Shown: positions 12,401 through 64,000 of the stretch, in pieces | How the letters are laid out: each line of letters starts with the position of its first letter | Numbering within the stretch: position 1 is the first letter of the stretch | DNA from: Haliotis rufescens | Lineage: Eukaryota | Direction of reading: 5' to 3' | NCBI RefSeq assembly: GCF_023055435.1 | Contig: NW_025964223.1 | Coordinates: 28,830,001-28,894,000, forward strand | Length of the DNA: 64,000 nt | Made by a program: the position numbers and the translations under genes | Notes under the pieces: generated by a model | What the model saw: only the letters and a program-made list of their open reading frames with translations | Told to the model about the DNA's origin: nothing | The model's database searches: none

Positions 12401-15400
12401 GAGGAACCACCTCCGAGTAGCCCTAGTGGAGATCACTGTTACGTGCAGGCTTGGTTACCTAGCGCTCTCTAAGTGCAATTCAGAATTTAAATGTAGGCTC
12501 CTCTGTCAACAATGGTCAGCTAGCCTTCTGTTCAGTGACCAAGTTACGGACACACCAAGGTCTGCAATTATGCTTGGGATAAGACCATGCTTAAGGCATT
12601 GGAGCATGTGTCTCATGGCAGGCAGGTCTGGCAACTACAGGCCGAGACACTCATCCCTCAAAGAGCAGGACCAGGATTTCGTTTGTTTGTTTGTTTGTTT
12701 GTTTGTTGTTTAATGCCACACTCAGCAATATTCCAGCTATATGACGGTGGTCTGTAAATAATCGAGTCTGGATCAGACAATCCAGTGATTGACATAATGA
12801 GCATCGATCCGTGCAAGTGGGATCAATGACATGCAACAACCAAGTCAGCGAGCCTGACCACCTGATCCCTTTTACGACAAGCATAGTCACCTTTTACGGC
12901 AAGCCTGGGTTGCTGAAGACCTATTTTACCCCAGAATCGTCACGGGTCGATTCCTTTCGTGGCAAAGAACGTGGCTGAAGGCCGCTTTCATATTCAACTG
13001 ACTGCGCTACAGCTACCGTTTGAACATAGAGCTAGATCCACTGTTGACCACAGCTACCCCGCTTTGGGATTATCCAAGGAAGCAACTAAAATCCAATATA
13101 GACATCTTGTCTTGCCTCGAATAGGCAGCTGTTCGTAGACGCCTCCCTACAACAGACTTGGTACATAAACAGTCTAGAGTTGGAAGTGCTCATTCTGATC
13201 ATCTCACATTGGCAGGAGCAGCTACAGTTCCCCCAAACTCAGACAATAGCACTCTCGTTCAGGTTTTTTCATCTAGTGGATTGTCTGGGACTAAACTTCA
13301 TAGTCCAGCACATCCTGGCCGATGCCCTATCCGGTCAGACAAGGTGGCTCCCATGGAGTGGAAACTTCACTCAGGGGCGTTCCAACTGGTGCTTCAGCGC
13401 TTTGGGCAACCAAACATCGACCTCTTTACAACACACCAGAACCAACTAATGACGTATGTCTCCCCGCTCCCAGATCCGCAGGCTTGGGCGGTAGACGTAG
13501 CCAGCATCCCCTGGGAAGAGCTAAAAGTGTACGCTCTTCCGCCTCTTGTACCACTTCCCAGGGTGATACAAAAGATCAAAGAAACAAAGAGCCTTTGGAA
13601 GGGATGGTTCGTCGACCTCATAAGCCTTGCAGAAGACAATCCATTACCCCTCCCAGAGTGGTCAAAGCTACTCATCCACCCACACAGCAAACTACTTAAC
13701 CCAACTCCAGGCAGATTTAATCTGCACGCTTGGTTTGTCTTCAAAAGGCGTTAAGCGCGAAGAGCTCTTCGGCGCCGGCAGCTAAGGCTAGTGCTTTTGG
13801 CACATTGTCCCTCTACATGGGGGTTATACAATGACACATGGTGGTCATTTGAAACTTTTTGAAAGGCAAAGAATCAAGATCCCACCACGGCATCACCTTA
13901 ATTCTTATTGGGATACCTCCTACACTTGCATAGTTTTCGCCAGCCCATATCTCAGCGATGTGGCGCTCAAAGACATCGAAGGCGTTCATAGTTTTGGCCC
14001 TCTGGTAGTAACCCAGCAGGTAACCAACCCCTGATGCAAATAATGAACTCGTCCTGTCCGGAGCCAGTCTTACCCTTCACGTGCAGTACTGTCTACGACA
14101 CCCGGTTGAAGGATTTTTCAATCTTTTTGTCAGCTTTGGCTTTGTAACAGAGAATATAAAGATTTTAGCTTACGCTAATCTTCCCACTTATACTCATTTT
14201 CATGTTCCGTCTGTAAATAAGATTGAACCGGCCCTACCGTCAGGCGTTTATGTTTTTTCCACCTTACAGTTTCCTTTACAACTTGTCGTTTGAAGGGTTC
14301 TTTATTATTGAGGTTTTTTTTACATCTGAAGGTATACCTACCACCATACCGCCTGATACAGATGCATTAAGGAGTAAAGCAGGATAAGTAAAAGATTTAG
14401 TAAAATCTAAATATTTATTATATTTGTATTCCTATCCTGCATTTACATCTAAGGACCCACCCCTCGTAGATTTGCCTCCCTACTATGTCTTTCAGAAATT
14501 CTTTTTGGTAGCTTGGGTGACGAGCACTAATATGGATTGGATGTGACATCACAATTTGTCACATGACAGCTGCGGTGGTCCTGTAAAAAGGGGACTTGTG
14601 TCGGAAATAGCATTTCTTTTTTTCACTCAGGACCATCGGGAGGTGCTGTCTTCTTTTTTGTAAGGTAAGCAGTAAGAGCATTAAGGAGTATTCCAGGATA
14701 AATATACATTTTTTACTTATCCTGCATTACTCCTTAATGCATTCACTGCTTACCTTGTGACAAAAAAAACCTGGGACAGCTAACCAGCGATGGTCCTTGG
14801 GTGAATGGTTCTGTTCACAATCCCACTTTTATATCCCGCCATCGCTGTCCCTGTGACCTCACGTGACCAAAGGTCAACTCTTCACATCACTGCCTGTCGC
14901 GACATAGCTAGGACGTTTCCAGCGGAGCTCTCGTTTTTGTTTTTTTATTTAGGCCTTCCATTCGTCTACCATTCTAAAATTCTTCTGCGATGGGTGATGT
15001 ATACCTTTCATATTACTTTCAACATGTTGTGAAGTTGTATTTGATGTTTTGAGGCGGAAAAAGAGACGTGTCTTTTTTTCCCGCCACGTGCTATCTGTTC
15101 CCCGCCATTTTGAATTGTGTTACAATTGTTTGCTTGGTAAAGGTAGTCAATTGTTTACAATTATCGGCTAGGTATGTATAACATATTTCATATGTTGTTT
15201 TCAATACTACTAGCTTTGGCGGTTCATTGAGTTGCGTATATTCAAGCATTTATACACTATCAACTCGTTCAAATATTTTGCCAAGAAATTATCTACGGCA
15301 GTAAATTCCAGTCCCGTTTTCTTCTAGCATATTATTGCGTAACTTATGCTTGCGCGTTGTACTAATTGTCGTGGGAAAAAATCTATTCAAGATCCTCACC

Positions 15401-21400: not shown

Positions 21401-24400
21401 GTCCGATACAGATGCATTAAGGAGTAATGCAGGATAAGTAAAAAATTTAGTAAAATCTAAATATTTTTTACATTTGTATACTTATCCTGCATTACTACGT
21501 TTAAGGCCCACCCGTCGCAGACTTGCCTCCCCACTTTGGCTTCAGAAACCTCAAAAGTATGTTTTTTAAGCTCGGGCGACAGGCAGTGATGTGAAGAGTT
21601 GACCTTTGGTCACGTGAGGTCACAGGGACAGCGACGGCGGGATATAAAAGTGGGATTGTGAACAGAACCATTCACCCAAGGACCATCGCCGGTTAGCTGT
21701 CTCAGTTTTTTTTTGTCACAAGGTAAGCAGTGAATGCATTAAGGAGTAATGCAGGATAAGTATACAAATGTAAAAAATATTTAGATTTTACTCATTTTTA
21801 ATTTTTGAATGAGGTAAGTATGATAATACTGACTCTAATTTAAAGGCCGCTTGCACCAAGACCAAGGCAGCCCTGATGCAGACGTCCCACGTCGTGTGAG
21901 TAGCGGGCCCAAGGAGAGGACCCTGCTGCCAGAGGAGCGGGGCATGGCTGATGGGAAAGAAGCTGCCCCACGGGTGTCCAGCTCCATGGGAGTCAGCAGT
22001 CCACCCAGAACGTGAGTGCTGACTGGCGGATATAGCTATTCCTTGAAACATTGGAACATGGTAAATTACGGTCTTCATTAACCCAAATCCATGTATTATT
22101 TCCAATTGAATCAGTCATCATAAAGACTGAAAAATATTAATATTTATCCAAAAAAATGAATTCTTTGTTCTTTATCAGTGGCATGACATGTTTTTCTCTT
22201 TGAAGGAAAAGAAGTTATGATTCTGACCTTGAAGAAGTATCTCTTTAAACACATTAACTTTGGTCAGTCCTTTCTTAGATGTTTTTAATTTATGTAAATC
22301 CATCAATTGCTATTGGGGAGTCCTCTTGTGATCCATGGAGCTTATTGCAAGCTTCACTGTTGCAGTGGTGGATCCCATGACGGGGAACAGAGGGTGGGCA
22401 GTGGCAGCTCACGCAAGTCCAGCAGTGCAGGGAAGAGTCGCAGTGGTCAGTGTGTTTCCCATCTTGTACACTCATCACAGATCTCCAACTGTCTTAAAGG
22501 TCTAATGTAGATCTCAGACTGACATACAAGTCTAATGGAGATCTCAGACTGACATACAAGTTTAATGGAGATCTCAGACTGACATACAAGTTTAGTGGAG
22601 ATCTCAGACTGACATACAAGTTTAATGGAGATCTCAGACTGACATACAAGTTTAATGGAGATCTCAGACTGAAATACAAGTTTAATGGAGATCTCAGACT
22701 GACATACAAGTCTAATGGAGATCTCAGACTGACATACAAGTCCAAGTCTAATTGAGATCTCAGACTTACATACAAGTCCAAGTCTAATGGCAGTCTCAGA
22801 CTTATGCAGATTTCCTCCCTTTTATGTTCCAGGCAGTGCTGGGAAAAGAGACTCAATTGACGTCGGTGATGATAACTTCTTCACAGACAAAGTGGCCCCT
22901 CTCATTGAGGCGATGTCAGCTCTTGGCAAGAGTAAGTCTTCACAAGTTGTAACAACATTTTATTGACCCACTCTGTAGTCCAAGGGGAGACAAGTTGGCA
23001 AGAGCAAGTGTTCACAAGTTATAAGAACATTTTGTTTCCCCACTGTTGTAGACAGGGACAATGAAAAGCTGGGGGAGCTGGCGGAGGAGCTGTACACTGT
23101 GCTGGACACCAACAAAAAACTGACCAAGAGCTACAAGCAGAGATCCTCCATACTCAAGGCCATCTTCAAGTTGCTGGATGTGGAAGAACCCAGAGTCATG
23201 CTCAAGTTAGCCAGGCTAATACTGGCAGTAAGTGACTTGCTCATAGCTCCATACTGTCAACAGTAATGTTTGAAACAGGGTGGGAATATTAAGGCCTGAT
23301 GGACAAAACAGGGTAGCAAAATGAGGATGTACATGTTCCTTTTGATGTGTGTTACTAGCTATGGCTTAATTTGAAGTAACATATGGGACAGACACTCATG
23401 TGTAGAAGATTTACTTAAGTGTTCTTGTTTTATTTGTGTATCAGTCAAAATCCATGCTGTGTTGTTAATCGTTCAATTGTTTAAGTCAATAGTAAATTCA
23501 ATAATTGTTTTTTTATTCACAATGGCATTACTGTATTTTCTTGAGTATAGTGCGCACCGAAGTATAATAGGGGATTCAGTATTTTAGAAAAAAAAATTCC
23601 GAGTATTATGGCTTGGAAATTTGAAATACAACAATATATCATTGACTTTAGGGGAAAATGCATTGTGTCAGTAACTTATTTTAAGCAAAATTGTTTGCAT
23701 AGCCTACAAATATCAAGGTTTCTCCTGTAGATTTAAGTACTGTATTCCCAATGTCCGAAGCTGTCTTTACTAAGCATCACATAGAGGATTCACAGGATTG
23801 TAATATTTGCTTCTTTAGAATCTAAGTAGGCAGGCTTGCTTCATCTGGGAGGTACTTTCATAGTAGCTAGTTTGACAGAAAGTTGGTAACAGGGACATGT
23901 TTTGAGGCAAAATCATGTTTCGACCCGTGAAGATCCAGGTTAAAATAGGTCGTCAGCAACCCATGCTTGCCATGAAAAGGCGACTATGCTTGTCGTAAGA
24001 GGTGGTCAGCTCGATGACTTGATGCATGTCATTTTATCCCAATGAGTGGATTGGTACATGATATCCATCACTGGATTGTCTGGTCCAGACTCAATTGTTT
24101 ACAGACTGCCGTCATATAGCTGGAATATTGCTGAATGCAGCATTAAACAACAAACAAACAAAACCATGTGACAGTAAGTTTTTCTGCATGCTTACTTGTC
24201 ACAGCCTAATGGACAAATTTCTTTTCCAGTTTAAGGTGGGAGGCAATAATCTGTTGAATGTGTGTAAGTTGGTGTTTAAAGTGAGCCGTAATGAGAAGAA
24301 CGACCAGGAGTTCCTGGAAGGCAATGTTCTAGGTGAGTTATCTGTGATGGAGGAGAAATGTCACGGAGATATGTGTACAGCTTGGCTACCACCACCATTT

Positions 24401-27400
24401 CTCAGACTTTTAACTCAGATATTTGTCACTTACTCCGTTTGTTACATCTGATCCACTCCTTTATATTCAAATCCCATTTGACAACATTTTTCAAACAATA
24501 GTGCATAATAGCTTGTAGCCTCACTCAGTCGACTCGGTTTGTGATCCAGTGGGGATAACTCTATCTATATGTTCACTTCATGTTTGCAGGTACTTCTGTC
24601 TTATCCAGTTTGTTGAAATTGTTGTATGTTCAAGACAGAGATATTATGAAAAATGTTTGTTATTTCAGATCTTCTGATAGAGACAATACAGAGTAGTGAC
24701 CATGTGGCGTCGTGTGAAGCTCTCATCTACTGTGTGGGAGCCGTCAAGTTCCTTACCGGAAACCCAACAATACTGAAGAGGCTGGCCAAGAAGGAGTGTA
24801 TAGAGACGCTTGCTGGACTCATGCACAATATAGAGAAAACTGTGAGCATAGCAAACTTTTCACACAGTATCTTTTGAGTCAAACTTGAACCCCCCGGGGT
24901 CCACAGCATCCTTGCTTGTTACGAGAGGTGACAAGGATGGAAATCAGGTGGTTGCAATGGCTGGTCAGTATGGTCAGTAATCAGGTGGTTGCAATGGCTG
25001 GTCAGTATGGTCAGTAATCAGGTGGTTGCAATGGCTGGTCAGTATGGTCAGTAATCAGGTGGTTGCAATGGCTGGTCAGTATGGTCAGTAATCAGGTGGT
25101 TGCAATGGCTGGTCAGTATGGTCAGTAATCAGGTGGTTGACAACTGTGGAAGACCAAGTCTCAGCTCTCTTATAGTAATAGCGTCAGTGTTTGCTTTGTT
25201 CAAAGCAGTAGCAGTCTATCACCTACATCATTTCAAGCCTACTTCCAGCATTAAGCTGATGTGACTGAAATACTGTTGAAAAGAGGAGTTAAACCCATCT
25301 CCTGCACTCTTTAAAACTGTCGGAGATTTTTTTATGATTCTATTTAGACAGACTTCTAAACATTGAAGGATTGAACTCTATGCGTATGTAGTTATCCCCC
25401 GCCGCGCGAAAGCGCGAAGCGGGGGATATAGTATTCACGACCGTCCGTACGTCCGTCCGTCCGTCCGTACGTCCCACCTGTTTGTTGCCGCGATATCTCA
25501 AGAACTAAACACTGGATTGTCTTCATATTTGGAACTATGGTGTATATACAGACTCCGCAGACACCAGTCGGTTTTGGTGACCTTGATCCCATTTTCAAGG
25601 TCACAGCAGACAAATCTGCTTTTAGAGTTGGAAAACGGTGTTGCCGCGATATCTCAAGAACTAAACACTGGATTGTCTTCATATTTGGAACTATGGTGTA
25701 TATACAGACTCCGCAGACACCAGTCGGTTTTGGTGACCTTGATCCCATTTTCAAGGTCACAGCAGACAAATCTGCTTTTAGAGTTGGAAAACGGTGTTGC
25801 CGCGATATCTCAAGAACTAAACACTGGATTGTCTTCATATTTGGAACTATAGTGTATATACAGACACCGCAGACACCAGTCGGTTTTGGTGACCTTGACC
25901 CCATTTTCAAGGTCACAGCAGGCAAATCTGCTTTTGGAGTTAGAAAACGGTGTTGCCGCGATATCTCAAGAACTAATTGCTGGATTGTCTTCATATTTGG
26001 AACTATAGTGTATATACAGACACCGCATACACCTGTCAGATTTGGTGAGCTTGACCCCATTTTCAAGGTCACAGCAGGCAAATCTGTTTTTGGAGTTGGA
26101 AAACGGTGTTGCCACAATATCTCAAGAACTAATCGCTGGATTGTCTTCATATTTGGTACTATGGTGTATATGGCGGGGGATATTTCGTCACTCTGTGACA
26201 AATACTTGTTTGTGTTGCTATGGAAACCTATAGCTGCTTTAAGTAATTCTTTCAGTCAGTTCATATTCACCTGTAGATTTTAATCATCAAGCGTAACATC
26301 AACAAACAGCCGTGTAATCTGTTCACAGCATCGTGATAATATCTCTCACTGATTTAAGGGGTCTTTTTCAAACTAGTTGGACCATTTTGTCTTCTTCATT
26401 GAATTAGACAACAGGATTGTTGACCCTCCCCTTCATGCCAACATTGTCTTCCTGTCTCTCTGCTTTACATGTACATTTCTTTCTGATCAGAATCGAGACA
26501 ATGGACGAGTCAGTGACCAGTTTGGACATATTTTAGTTCAGGTAAATTATTGCTTTCTTGTTATATTGAAGGCATTTGATGAAGGATGTTGTGTGCACTT
26601 GTTTATGCAATTGTTACCAAAACAGAATAGGTTATGTTTCCTTCACGTAATTAAAGTTAAATTATTGACAGTGTGAAAGGATATTTAAGATGGAAATAAA
26701 CAGTTGCTTCTCTGACATCTTTTCTATGGTGTCTTTTTTAATCTGATATTAGAATTTTCATATTTTGTCTATAAGCATTTTTGTCTGAATGTTTCTATGT
26801 GTTTTGTGTTTGTCAAAATAATACCCAAGCAACAAGCTTACTTTCTTCAGCCTTACGTTTGTTTGATGATTTACTGAATAAAAATAGAAACACCATCCAT
26901 CGTATCTAGTCATATTGGTTTAGAGGGAACTGTATGTAGCTGCCTAGTCATATTGGTTTAGAGGGAGCTATATGTAGCTGCCTAGTCATATTGGTTTAGA
27001 GGGAGCTATATGTAGCTGCCTAGTCATATTGGTTTAGAGGGAACTACATACATGTATTGCTACCTAGTCCTTTGTGACATTATGACATTGTTGTGTGTGC
27101 AGCTGTGTGCAGCCCTGCGTAACCTGGCTGATGTGGGGTCAGGGAGGGAGCGGTTCCTGCAGACCGGGGTCATAGAGAGCCTCAGTCATCTTCTCGATGC
27201 CTACCCCAATGACTGTGATCTGGTACTCTACATATCCAGAATATTCAGGTAAGCTGACGTCCCCACACATTCCACACCTCAGGAATGACTGATGTTTTAA
27301 GCAGTGTTTGCGTTTATGGCGTCCCATATACAAAAATACGCACCGAAAAAAAATAGGACGCAAAAAACCCAACCTTCACGCGTCCCTTTACACGTTTTTT

Positions 27401-30400
27401 ATTTTGAAAACAGGCATAACTTATTGTTGTTTTGTTCGTGTTCGTGTTTCTCTTGCTCCCAAAACTCATGTGATAATGTGTATCCAATATTCGCGGGGTT
27501 CCGGTGCAAGCCACAGATTTCGGCGGGAAACTGAGAGGTATCCGATGACGTTTCTCTTCCATGTCGTGTCCGTAATGGCATCGCTGATTGGTTTACAAAA
27601 CAGAAATAGAAACATAAGCCAATCGCAGACCTTGTTAACAGTATTTTGTCAATGTCAAGGACTAAAGTCCAAATGGCATCCCCGAAACTTTGTCAAAAGA
27701 AAAATAGGTTTCAAGAAAGTTTGCTTGAAGAGCCAATATACTCTTTCAACACCGTAGGCCGGTAGACCAGCCATGTCGTAGTCACGTCAAAATAAAGGGT
27801 AGATCTATATAATCTTATGAACCTACCTGTCATATCATTCATTTATTAAATCAATCACATTTCACAATGTCTAAAATACGTATTCCATTTCAATTTATCA
27901 TTTTTTATCGAAAGATTAAATGATTCACTATTTCCCGCGATGTTATTGAAAATAAAATTCACGGACACACACTTCGACAACGGTCCACATCGAACATGTC
28001 AAAGAACAAAACAAAGACGTTTTAAACAAATATTTAAATCTAGTATACAAAGTAATAAATAACATCAACCAAAATATATCAATAAGTTGTCGAAATTACA
28101 GCTAAGTTATTATTTCAATCTTTTCCTGCGATCGCGTATAATGTAAATCAAATGACATCTCGGCTTTCGTTGCCTCGATTTCTCGGCTCAGATACGATGT
28201 TTCCAATATGCCTGAAAAACCTGTGTCACAGCTCCTAACCTAGAACGATACATCCACGAAGTTCCATGTTTTTAATATAGATCGCGAGTTTCCTGCTTGA
28301 AACGTTAAGAATAACAAAAAACTTTCGTCAAAATCTTTGATTACACATGTGCCATTGCTGTAATTTGATTGACAGCCTTAGTTTGACCAATCACCACCCT
28401 CGTAGCAGATATCGACAAGAAAGCACGTGACAAACTTACAGCGACGAAAAGACATGGCGAGGTTAGTGTAGATGAAAAAATAAACTTTCTAATACGAAGC
28501 TTCGAAAACGGTCGTATTTCTTAATGTTACTGACAGCCGCAGGTATCGAGAAATTGGTGATGACAGATACTATTTACAATTATAAAATACTTTCCCGATC
28601 AGGTAAACAATGAAATAAAAAAGAAATAGGTAAGTGGATTTTATGTTTGTCTATATTTGACAAAAATCGTCAAATTTACCCTTCCTTGGTCCTCAATCTG
28701 GACGTTTGAATGTGTTAGCTTACATCTTTATTTACAACTTACTTAAGTTGTAAATGCTTTATTTAAATAATGTGATAAACATAAATATGTATAAACAGTA
28801 GGATTAGACCTTTCAAATGGTGTATAACATGTAGTTGCAAATATGTTTTACTAGACTAACATTTAGTCTATGAAATCTTATATTACACAATACCCTTCTC
28901 GACTCCAAAAATAAATATATAATTTCCCCTTTGCTGATTTCCTAGCTAGAACTGGCTTCACTTGCTTTTGTATACGTTTCTAGATTGGTGTTGTTTTCAC
29001 AAAATATATATATTCCACAGTCATGGTGCAGGACTAATGTTTTACAAGCAGATATTTTCCTTGATAAATGTTTGCTTCATCTATCACACAAGAGTCTCTG
29101 GGAACTTGGTGTCACAGCAGATAAAGCTTCTAGTTGACTGGTGTTGAAAAAGTCAAGTGGCTAATCTATGAAGATTTTAAAGATGTCTTGTGTACACACA
29201 TAAAAAGTGAGACTTAAAGATTTTAACCACACACTTATTTATGCTCAGAATGGCCTAAAGTACACCATTTCAGGTCCACATTTAACAAAATTTCGTGGGG
29301 GGGCATGCCACCAAACCCCCCTAGATAGCTTCGCGCCTACGGCGCTCGCGGCTACCGGGTCACAGGCGACCCCGTTATTTTGAAACACAACGCAAACACT
29401 GTTTAAGTATTTGTTTGTCTGTTGGTTAAGGCCACACTGAGCAATATTCCAGTTGTATGACAGATGTTTGAAAATGATAAAATCTGGACCAGACAATCAA
29501 GTGAGTGAGTTGAGTTTAATTAATGCCACTTTTAACAATATTCCAGTTATATCGCGGCGTGTCAGCTTAATGTGGGAGGAAAGCCTGAAGTGATGCAGGT
29601 CTCAGACATTTACCACTTCGGTGAAACCCACAAGCACGGGTATGGTGCTGACAGACCTAGAAACATGTGATCGGGGTGAATCGGGATTGGAACCCACTAT
29701 CATAGGTTTCTGGCGTGCCAAAGGGACGCAACTCTGCACAGCGAATTGTGGCGCCTTAGACGACTGGGCCACTCGTGCCCCCCCCCCCCAGACAATCAAG
29801 TGATTGACATCATAAGAATCAATCTACACATTTGGGATACGATGAAATGCATGAAGAAAGATCCCATTAGTCACCTCTTGCGAAAAGCATAGTCACCTTT
29901 TACGGTAAGCTTGGGTTGCTGAAAAACGATTCTAACCTGGATCTCCCTTCTTTTAAGTGGCTGTGAGCTGATCCTCAAAATTTGTTATTTGAATGCAGTG
30001 TATTTGACTTTACCAGTTACTTTGATAATTGATCTGTGGTCAGACCAATTTGAATACTTGTTGCAATGAAGACACGGGGAAAGAATAAAACCTTTTTAAG
30101 ATAAAAAAAATCATATATTAGGAAACAAATACTATCCATTTGCTTCAAGTGAATTCTTCGGAGTTGGAGAGAGCAACCCATGTCTAAATGCCAATTTTAG
30201 TACTGTAAATGTTCATTTTGGGCTCTGACAAAGTACATTCTACCTGAATTAGAAGACCTGTTAGTGGACTGTTACTAGATCTGCAACGATACACCTAGGT
30301 CACGATACGATACGTGTCTCGATACTTACATCCCGATTCGATACGTATCTCGATACACATAGTGACAAGAGAAGAAAAGAGATAAATGAATTAAACTTAG

Positions 30401-45389: not shown

Positions 45390-45585
45390 TGGTTGGTTGT
45401 TTAACGCCGCACTCAGCAATATTCCAGCTATATGACGGCGGTCTGTAAATAATCTAGTCTGGACCAGACAATCCAGTGATTATTATCATGAGCATCGATC
45501 CACGCAATTGGGATCGATGACATGCATCAACCAAGTCAGCAAGCCCGACCACCCGATCCCGTTAGTCGCCTCTTACGACAAGCAT
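45390..45585 (-). mobile_element. 5'-truncated SINE-like family A copy
   Basis: High similarity to 12700-12890; begins at ATGCTTGTCGTAAGAGGCGACTAACGGG on the minus strand. Confidence 0.88.
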
Positions 45586-61129: not shown

Positions 61130-64000
61130 TAGGATTAGGGTTTTTTGGTGTGTTTTTTTATTTGGGCGCTGTGCAGGGCTGATACTATAACCTTTTGGAA
61201 TTTGGTGTTGTGTTTAGTTTTAAATCATTAAGGTTGTGTGTGTTTACGTAGTTTAGTATGCGTTGGGAAATGAAGGTTTTTGCGAAGCAGCGTTTGCAGT
61301 GATGTGCGCGGTATGCCTTTTTGTGTGCATGTGATTATTATCTTTAGTGCTTGATATTAGATTGAGATTAGTTTATCGCTTAATGATGAGTTTAGGGTGT
61401 TGTATAATGATAGTAGGGTCTCCTTGGAGGCCCCCCAGTTGAAACCTTGTCAGGCAGCGTGGTTTGTTTAGGTCTTTACTGCATCTATTTTTTAGATATT
61501 TAATGTGAGCACCACAGGTTAGATTTTCATCAAAGATTAGTCCAGATATTTGGTCTGTTTGGGGAATTGTATGGGATTATTGTTAAGTTGTAGTTTGGGA
61601 GTGTTTGCACGCATATTTTTGTGTTTGAATACTGTCCCTGTAGTTTTTTCGGTATTCAGTGAGAAGCCCATTTATTTGCCCATATTTGAAGTTTGTTTAA
61701 TTGTTTAATGCCTTCTGCAATAATTTTTAGCCATATTTATGCTTCTGGTGCGGATCCAGAGGGCTCCGTCATCCGCGTATTTAGAAGTTATTTGATATTC
61801 CCTCAAATAGGTCATTAATCATACGGGGGCACGGGTGGCCCAGTCGTCTAAGGCGCCGCGATTCGCTGTGCAGAGTTGCGTCCCTTGGGCACGCCAGAAA
61901 CCTATGATTGTGGGTTCGAGTCCCGGTTCGCCCCGATTATGTTTCTAGGTTTGTCAGCACCACACCCGTGCCCGTGGGTTTCACCGAAGTGGTAAACGTC
62001 TGAGACCTGCATCACTTCGAGCTTTCCTCCCACATTAAGCTGACACGCCGCGATATAACTGGAATAATGTTAAACCAAACTCACTCACTCACTCATTAAT
62101 CATACTGTTGAAAAGTGTTGGGCTTAGAATGCTGCCTTGGGGTGTGCCATTCTCTAGGGGACACTGAACCGATAACGTTTGCTCGATTCCCACGGTTATT
62201 TTACGATTTGTTAGGAAGTCTTGTATATAGTTTATTATGTGGCCTTGACTTTTTGAGTTTTTGTATTAGCCCGTTATGCCATACCATATCCAAAGCTTTA
62301 GAGAAATCTAGGAATATGCCTACTGTCGGTCCAACTGCCCTGTGTTAATGTCTGGCTCTAAGCTGGCGATGTTGTCTAAAGTTGAGCGGCCTGGGACGAA
62401 TCAGCTATTGTCCTGTTTTATTATAATGTTTTGGTCTAGGTAGTGTTGGAGCCTATTTTTGACAACTTATCCATTATGTTACATAACTTTGAGATTAGGG
62501 AGATTGGTCTGTATGAATTTGCCTCGTCTGCCGGTTTGTTCGGCTTTGGTATTTGGATGACCAATGCCTCTTTCCTTGAAGTAGGAACCTGACTGTCTTG
62601 GTAGATGAGATTGTATAGTCTTAGAAGTGATTCCCGTAGAATTTTGGGTAGCTGTTTAACTATTCGGTATGAGGTTACGTCTAGTCTGGGGCTGTTCTTT
62701 TTTCCGATTGTTTAATACATGGAGTTGTTCCTCTATTGCATATGGCTGGTTTATTTCTAGGTTATCGTCTTTGGGTAATTTGGAGAATTTATTTTCATTT
62801 ATTAATTGTTTTTGGAATTTCTCAGTGAAGTTACTATTGCTACTAATGGCTGAGAAATTGTTTGCTAGGTTAGTTGCTTTTTGTTTAGGGTTTGTTGAGT
62901 TATTTATTTTTGGTGTTTTTTTGGTTCTTTTAATGCCTCGTATTACGTGTATTTTGCGTCATTCTGTTCTTCCGTGTGTTTCATAGTTTATTTCTTCGCA
63001 GAATTTTTCCTCCAGTTTTTGGCTTTTGCTGTTTTCACGAGATTTTGTACTTGGTGATTTTGTTGATGTGCTATCTTTAGATATGCGTGGTCTCGTTTAG
63101 CTTTGTTAAATGCGCTTTTGCGTTTTTTCTAGTCTTTTTTATTTCCTCGGTCCACCAAGGTACCCGGATTTTGCCTATTTTTTTGTGTTCTGAAGGGGAT
63201 AGTCTTTTTTCTATGCATTCTGTTTTGGCAGTATTTGTCGGGGTCTTTATTTTCGAGGTCCGTTTGGTAAACCTGTTTACATAATGCTTTCTATTTGTCC
63301 CAGTTTTCCTTGTTGTTAGGAAGTTTGGTTCTTGGTGTTCCTTTTAGATTTGGATATTTATGTTTCCTATCGTTATGTGTATTGGAAAGTGGTCGCTGTC
63401 AAGCGACTACTCACGCACTTCCCACAAAGTGCTTTTGGCGAGATCAGGGGTACAGATTGTCAGGTCTATAGCCAACATATTTTGATCATATCTAGTTGGT
63501 TGGTTGTTATTTAGTAGTATTAGTTTTTTTTTGTTCGATCCAGTTGGCCATGAGTTTCCCGATTTGGTCTGTTTTATCTTTAACACCCCGCGAGGGGTGG
63601 TGGGCGTTGAAGTCCCCAAATAAGATGGTGGATTTTTGGCCTATTTGATTCAGGACTTTTATGTCTTTGGGTTTAATTTGTTTCAATATCCAGTGGTATA
63701 TGTTTACAACGTTTTTGTTTTTTATTGTGATTAGTTATTTGTATACCATTAGCTTCTAGATTTGGTGTTCTTATTAGTATTTCCTTATAGTTTATGTCCT
63801 CTCTGACATATATGACAGGCCACCGCCTGCTCTACCTGGGTGAGATTTGACTCTGTCGAGTCTTACCGAGTTATAATTAGGAAGGGTTCATTTGTATTTT
63901 AGGGGTCTCCTGAACGCATCTGACATGAGGACCTGGTTTTTTCCTAAATTTGGAGTTTAGTTCGTGGACGTGGGGGGCCAGTCCGTTGGCATTCCACTGT
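61130..64000 (-). mobile_element. Decayed non-LTR retrotransposon (Jockey/I-group-like) ORF2, APE endonuclease plus RT; continues past the window end
   Basis: Minus-strand motifs QWNANG, CVQET, GDFNAH, IDLTIC, SDHF (APE); YRPISL, FLDFSKALD, GTPQGSILSP, YADD (RT). Confidence 0.9.
61825..62092 (+). mobile_element. tRNA-derived SINE family B inserted in the LINE RT, 13-bp TSD TCATTAATCATAC
   Basis: A box TGGCCCAGTCG at 61836, B box GGTTCGAGTCC at 61913, (ACTC)n tail; TSD at 61812-61824 and 62093-62105. Confidence 0.93.

Follow-up and report, generated by a model that had tools for sequence, protein, structure and literature searches.

How a retroelement without a recognisable promoter of its own obtains a defined 5′ end is the question raised by a short interspersed element (SINE) of Haliotis rufescens. 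The accepted answers for promoterless retroelements are internal promoters and self-cleaving ribozymes. For the copy at position 23922 in a 64-kb stretch of genomic DNA (the window), the original prediction proposed a pseudoknotted RNA at the 5′ end, acting as a self-cleaving ribozyme or else as a structured element by which the SINE is freed from host transcripts.

The SINE family and its LINE-derived head

The element is about 250 nt long and is present in tens of thousands of copies with a sharp 5′ end, AAAC repeats at the 3′ end and a head not derived from a tRNA. In the 1.33-Gb genome, exact matches amount to 37,644 for a 24-mer of the body and 12,773 for a 24-mer of the head. The predicted absence of A and B boxes was borne out, as none of the four scanned copies carries an A box followed by a B box, and the SINE does not fit the definition of a Pol III SINE with a small-RNA-derived head bearing both boxes. 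No tRNA gene was detected in the 64-kb window, and the SINE copies were without a match to any Rfam family. A B-like string at the 5′ junction was discarded, because it relies on bases of the flank, and these are random in copies picked without bias.

Judged by its sequence, the head appears to be the already published LINE-derived “LP” head. LP-SINEs (“LINE promoter”) have been defined, Haliotis included, as elements flanked by target-site duplications (TSDs) and lacking a tRNA head (Matetovici 2016, PMC4758252). Their head of about 70 bp is shared with the Nimb LINEs Nimb-17_LMi and I-3_DR as well as the RTE LINE RTE-9_CPB, and its suggested role is that of a promoter, put forward as a hypothesis (PMC4758252). 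The SINE studied here combines a head of about 70 nt homologous to a Nimb/RTE 5′ UTR with TSDs, 3′ tandem repeats and no coding capacity. By eye, its head matches the segment labelled “Nimb-17 homology” in scallop SINEs (PMC4758252); the hexamer AATATA, reported for the LP-SINEs of Haliotis, reads AATATT in it. Compared with the heads of six LINEs from the same genome, its head matched at 79% over 61 nt in three and over 23 nt in two, with no match in the sixth (L486). The original prediction had suggested looking for the head on autonomous LINEs and in other phyla, and it was found in LINEs of the same genome, in a LINE from a record labelled bacterial (L351) and in published scallop rows. 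The element type itself is published. In the literature covered, with most subscription journals and Repbase outside its scope, no paper was found on the fold, the viral occurrence, the HDV pairing or retroelement ends defined by exoribonuclease-resistant RNAs (xrRNAs).

The window contains four copies, and a covariance model that draws mostly on other families recovers all of them. As predicted, the copies at 23922 (+) and 12948 (-) both open with GACCCGTGA and the other two are partial, the one ending at 29944 (-) without the first 9 nt and the one ending at 45585 (-) without about 64 nt. The features are as follows (window coordinates).

23922..24159, + strand: whole SINE copy with LP-type head, body, I/Nimb-type tail and AAAC repeats; decayed
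23908..23918, + strand: left TSD, 11 bp with 1 mismatch; 3 extra nt before G23922
24159..24169, + strand: right TSD
23924..23927, + strand: 5′ strand CCCG of stem S1 in the predicted pseudoknot
23928..23928, + strand: loop L1, a single U (U in 18/21 families)
23929..23935, + strand: 5′ strand GAAGATC of stem S2
23936..23939, + strand: 3′ strand of S1, CAGG in this copy vs CGGG in most copies
23940..23947, + strand: A-rich loop, TTAAAATA in this copy vs KTAGAATA in most copies
23948..23954, + strand: 3′ strand of S2, GGTCGTC in this copy vs GGTCTTC in most
23959..23962, + strand: 5′ strand ACCC of stem P3; the pairing GGG, which follows CTAAC, has been lost here by deletion
23964..23986, + strand: first of the 22-nt modules, bearing hairpin P4; decayed and with 1 nt inserted
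23987..24002, + strand: second module, shortened by an internal deletion
24106..24146, + strand: 3′ tail resembling tails of I-group LINEs of the same genome by eye, a likeness not reported by blastn
12681..12948, - strand: second full-length copy with two modules, the second shortened
45390..45585, - strand: 5′-truncated copy beginning at the second module
29410..29944, - strand: copy without about 9 nt at the 5′ end, interrupted by another SINE
29489-29504 and 29788-29803: 16-bp duplications bordering the SINE inserted in the 29944 copy

The copy at 23922 is decayed, with mismatches in S1 and S2 and a deletion that takes out one strand of the predicted closing stem; the interval 23922-24005 has no ACGGG strand at all and folds no better than shuffled sequences (energy z 0.27). 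The tandem duplication of the 22-nt module holds for many copies of the family and is absent from others. Directly downstream of the copy, the + strand holds two coding exons, one at 24230-24332 and one beginning near 24670, the peptide of which may resemble ARMC2; the copy is probably intronic and in sense orientation. A second SINE family with a related tail and, by eye, a tRNA-like head occurs at 29505-29787 (-), where it is nested inside the 29944 copy, and at 61825-62074 (+); ARAGORN reported no tRNA in its head. Elsewhere in the genome, a satellite array of about 640 bp holds an amplified old variant of the LP-type head (L550-L559; G000 C57 near 2.18-2.23 Mb), and an 82-bp tandem repeat consists of this head alone (L541-L543).

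Predicted fold of the head and its distribution

Base-pair covariation between families supports a fold of the head that starts with a 5′ H-type pseudoknot, in which S1 (4-5 bp), one U, S2 (7-8 bp) and an A-rich loop follow each other. S1 would pair the 5′ CCCG with CGGG of the loop and S2 GAAGATC with GGTCTTC. The same kind of evidence supports a subsequent stem P3 with a small internal loop, bearing the hairpin GTCGT/GCGAC (P4). When 166 of the matches listed were grouped into 38 clusters and used unfiltered, matched strands exceeded strands swapped between clusters with z 4.3 for S2, 3.8 for S1 and 3.9 for P3; in the 14-cluster subset with strong S2, p was 0.065 for S1 and 0.054 for P3. Of 22 hand-picked intact rows tried, 21 were used; these rows are related, and the register of S2 was fitted. 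Depending on the position, S2 is paired in 18-20 of the 21 rows and S1 in 18-19, and the first and last pairs of S1 show compensatory changes (C-G/G-C swaps, p 5e-5). A MAFFT alignment showed double changes in 7/7 S2 pairs, a result equalled in 0/500 shuffles.

The head is thereby supported as structured and pseudoknotted, as originally predicted, but with the pseudoknot and the closing stem swapped relative to the original four-pairing fold. Its pairing of TGAAGATC with GGTCTTCA is strongly backed by covariation across families, and its hairpin GTCG-TAAGAGG-CGAC is present and invariant, an invariance that stems in part from the use of this motif as search query. Its closing stem CCCGT:ACGGG and its pseudoknot GGGT:AACCC reached only z 1.0 and -0.6 across families, and these two helices were paired in 48.4% of cases versus 47.6% in shuffles of the MAFFT alignment. 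We assign the H-type pseudoknot because pairing of S1, S2 and P3 is backed across families while that of these two helices is not. In favour of the original closing stem, the minimum-energy fold of an intact copy (L026) includes CCCGU:ACGGG (z -1.25), a weak signal from a single-sequence method that is blind to pseudoknots. Since P3 is cut to about 3 bp in the window SINE family and the L026 fold uses this pairing, an alternative fold may be adopted in that family. In LINEs found by protein search, P4 keeps its stem and varies in the loop; a dedicated pattern search returned no stem variants of the hairpin. The head fits no Rfam family; a clear match had been named as evidence against the original prediction.

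The 18-nt core of the motif matched 10 contigs of the viral collection, 7 of them with the full fold. Two-part patterns returned 29 viral, at least 122 metagenome and 14 prokaryote-collection stretches, and one further RNA virus was found separately; a looser viral pattern gave at least 120 rows, chance matches except for one already known. The fold is present in seven RNA-virus contigs representing six distinct viruses, and in 7/7 it lies on the sense strand 3′ of the last stop codon, with 26-222 nt between the stop codon and the AGAATA loop. From this position in the sense-strand 3′ UTR, it can be deduced that the motif probably works as RNA. The contigs are continuous across the 5′ edge of the motif. 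Pfam identified an RdRp in four and a capsid in four of the seven, and nothing on the long second frame of L192. A tandem second copy of the motif is carried by L192 and, by eye, by L527.

Outside RNA viruses, the fold was found in SINE-like families, at the front of the LINE in L351 and upstream of reading frames in L348 and L300 that may encode RTE endonucleases. In a DNA-virus contig of 212,482 bp, the motif (L195:7977-8056) lies between genes, and the frame that follows 141 nt downstream of it has 1056 aa and matches a phosphodiester glycosidase weakly. A bacterial distribution was rejected: most of the 14 prokaryote-collection matches score low with the covariance model (13-25 bits, six low scorers tested), and those bearing the fold are read as contamination, because they are situated in eukaryote-like DNA near contig ends or in a LINE. 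Eukaryotic LINE/SINE sequence in records labelled as bacterial genomes or bins (L351:2976-6044; L346, L350, L352) is likely due to contamination or chimeric contigs.

A protein search led to intact I-group LINEs in the same genome, and 19 of the 20 fetched carry the motif. All 22 heads in these 19 LINEs have, directly upstream of the motif, a 57-nt sequence that can be threaded onto the HDV fold and marks where the element starts. Its G1 start, 7-bp P1, 7-nt L3, GG, catalytic-strand CTAA and P2 were all threaded by eye, and its score against Rfam RF02682 (26.2 bits, E 0.011) lies below the gathering score of 44. This candidate ribozyme is kept in 30/30 LINE copies picked by the motif and in 794/835 exact matches. 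It is compact with almost no P4 of its own (L478:1892-1948 and 794+ genomic copies), heads a large, young family of I/Nimb-like LINEs and has GCAAA in place of GCTAA in the catalytic strand of a few copies. The I-group LINEs occur in genomic patches, often one inside another (L474-L493; G000 C445 ~31-32 Mb, C46 ~5-6 Mb). L478 is a candidate partner of the SINE, with endonuclease, RT and RNase H domains in ORF2. By eye the LINE tails resemble that of the SINE but end in ACTC repeats, in contrast to AAAC in the SINE, and no exact partner was found among the I-group LINEs of this genome that were compared. The first 12 nt of the SINE (23922-23933) resemble the start of the HDV-like head (L478:1892-1905), CGTGAAGA being common to both, and in topology the S1/S2 knot corresponds to the outer P1/P2 knot of HDV; the likeness of the two starts would be due to chance or recombination.

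Formation of the 5′ end

The 5′ ends of the SINE are sharp, whereas heterogeneous ends had been named as evidence against the original prediction. Among 30 copies picked by a body motif, 21 start at positions 1-8, 12 of them exactly at position 1; the others start at positions 55-62 (4), 109 (4, from a single tandem array) and 126 (1). Truncated 5′ ends form a second group between the two modules, at positions 55-65 (45585 in the window; L359, L364, L367, L369), which may result from stalling of the reverse transcriptase at hairpin P4. For a sample with exact heads, 40 stretches were fetched, of which 5 with the match on the opposite strand were dropped and 35 were kept. TSDs were called in 20/35, ending right at the G of position 1 in 11 and at most 3 nt away in the rest.

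In elements without an upstream ribozyme, the start lies 6 nt before the U of L1, whatever the base or the loop length. The base at this offset is G in 25/35 copies from this genome, where it precedes ACCCG, A in 22/32 of one metagenome family and G in 23/31 of another set; farther upstream the flanks are near random in the own and metagenome sets. The offset is kept both with a short loop (10/12) and with a loop about 11 nt longer (9/10). A purine forms the first base in every SINE family counted, but not in viruses, and likewise in 6/7 full-length rows of the scallop supplement (PMC4758252). An enrichment of TTC before position 1 among the best matches proved to be query bias and was gone in pattern-picked copies. 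A cap-derived G at position 1 was also rejected, since other families begin with A and the preceding base is G in 6/21 of one family. Small-RNA reads from three runs of a related organism (139 on the SINE, 53 on the LINE head) were mostly antisense and formed no pile-up at the head.

Our favoured reading, to which we give a probability of about 0.5, is that the head may act as an xrRNA-like roadblock for exoribonucleases, by which host transcripts would be trimmed to the 5′ end of the SINE; the fallback of the original prediction, a structured releasing element, would thus be taken up in a specific form. The first 70 nt or so of the SINE would form the LINE-derived head with its H-type pseudoknot and hairpin-bearing stem, and the knot would block the 5′-to-3′ exoribonucleases Xrn1/Xrn2. 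Degradation of a host transcript that includes the element would then end at a constant position shortly before the knot, and the shortened RNA would be copied by a LINE reverse transcriptase of the I/Nimb type. In viruses, subgenomic RNAs from the 3′ end would remain after such a block, and in LINEs headed by an HDV-like ribozyme the motif would be a second line of protection. The three-dimensional fold is inferred, as are the resistance to nucleases, the use of host promoters for transcription and the mobilisation by I/Nimb-type LINEs. A single function would account for the site in viral 3′ UTRs, for the motifs in tandem, for a SINE end tied to the structure and for the retained ribozyme.

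The retained ribozyme bears on the alternatives. If RNA were efficiently cut or started at the edge of the motif, the ribozyme upstream would be gone within one cycle; its presence in 794/835 LINE copies therefore suggests that, in these LINEs, RNA is not usually cut or started by the motif at its edge. A roadblock predicts an unused motif edge where the 5′ end is made upstream, which an efficient cutter or start site does not. HDV products bear a 5′-OH and are poor substrates of Xrn1.

The ribozyme proposed originally, which would represent a new self-cleaving class cutting just ahead of the pseudoknot, has in its favour the sharp 5′ end anchored to structure, conserved unpaired residues and the precedent of other non-LTR elements (PMC6765202). 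In the LINEs, the would-be cut site falls within the P2 strand of the HDV-like fold and might be masked there. We nevertheless regard it as improbable: besides the LINE copies, six RNA-virus genomes, the contigs of which run through this point, would lose their final 100-250 nt by a cut, and no Rfam ribozyme matched the motif, although the same tool weakly detected the neighbouring HDV fold. Hammerhead, twister, pistol and hatchet gave no Rfam match in the window (E<=1) or on 8 loci (E<=5). What stands of the original claim is a conserved, pseudoknotted RNA outside the Pol III class, with self-cleavage disfavoured. An HDV-like ribozyme forming the SINE head itself was rejected, because the topology of S1/S2 followed by P3/P4 contains no nested double pseudoknot and Rfam gave no match.

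The purine at position 1 across the counted SINE families fits a transcription start and speaks against a roadblock. It would be accounted for by a dual element, in which an internal promoter at the DNA level sets the start at position 1 and the folded RNA serves as a binding site for ribosomes, initiation factors or LINE proteins, this binding being what viruses retain. A promoter role has been put forward for the LP head (PMC4758252), Pr77 combines promoter and ribozyme in one (PMC4758252; PMC3383444), and LINE RNA cleaved by an HDV-like ribozyme requires cap-independent translation (PMC6765202); the motif ahead of the long frame in the DNA-virus contig points the same way. However, LINE copies do not start at the motif edge (794/835), and the distance from the 5′ end to AGAAT and the hairpin shifts by about 11 nt, that to S1 being constant. 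As it also requires two functions where one suffices, we consider a dual element unlikely, if less so than the new ribozyme.

It is very improbable, in our judgement, that the fold is a passenger in the SINE, of importance in LINEs and viruses only, with the 5′ end simply inherited from a few source copies. The weak P3, the variable number of modules and the decayed window copies would agree with this, but several unrelated SINE families keep the knot by compensatory changes and at the same start offset, and every cycle must still make an RNA 5′ end at position 1.

The roadblock itself has to face that LINEs in which a block looks redundant preserve the motif best, and that P3 is short, L026 has a rival fold and S1 and P3 reach only the p values given above in the 14-sequence subset. 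Moreover, Xrn1 is not stalled by ordinary H-type frameshift pseudoknots (PMC10321173), so a roadblock would need extra docking of the 3′ domain.

If it holds, trimming by an exonuclease to a roadblock would be a third route to a 5′ end, and the SINE would need no promoter of its own. A further step, that the motif is a new class of xrRNA swapped between unrelated RNA viruses and host LINEs/SINEs and making retrotransposon 5′ ends, is put forward tentatively, as somewhat less than an even bet. Whatever its function, the occurrence of one RNA module in LINE clades, in SINE families and in viruses unrelated to each other implies that sequence has passed between host transposons and viruses. Being compact (about 70 nt) and having many natural compensatory variants, the motif allows the role of the LP head, which the 2016 account did not settle, to be tested.

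Relation to known systems

The head of the SINE corresponds by eye to that of the published LP-SINEs in sequence; the structure, the viral occurrence and the upstream HDV ribozyme are absent from the parts of that account consulted (PMC4758252). HDV-like ribozymes (R2, L1Tc/ingi Pr77, RTE) likewise mark the 5′ ends of non-LTR elements and cross LINE clades (PMC6765202). In contrast to them, the motif has no P3/L3, P1.1, catalytic C element or nested double pseudoknot. A complete HDV-like fold adjoins the motif in LINEs of the same genome, whereas the SINE is without such a fold.

With viral xrRNAs, for which viral 3′ UTRs are the main location (PMC10321173), the motif shares the position in the 3′ UTR after the stop codon, on the sense strand in 7/7 RNA-virus contigs, and the knotting of the 5′-most strand (for S1, p 5e-5 in 21 hand-picked rows and z 3.8 unfiltered). 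Its end at the base of the first helix is also comparable, as Xrn1 comes to a stop exactly at P1's base in plant-virus xrRNAs (PMC12397905). Like coremin, it has a 5′ knot followed by a second stem (PMC10520033). Judged by the descriptions available in PMC12397905 and PMC10520033, it matches neither xrRNA classes 1-3 (flavivirus classes 1 and 2, plant-virus class 3) nor coremin in structure or consensus, as it lacks a three-way junction, a P1/P2/L2B scaffold and the coremin consensus; Rfam gave no match on six virus-type loci. Finally, xrRNAs are described from viruses only in the parts of PMC12397905, PMC10321173 and PMC10520033 consulted, whereas the motif, with a resistance that is predicted here, is also found in host retroelements.
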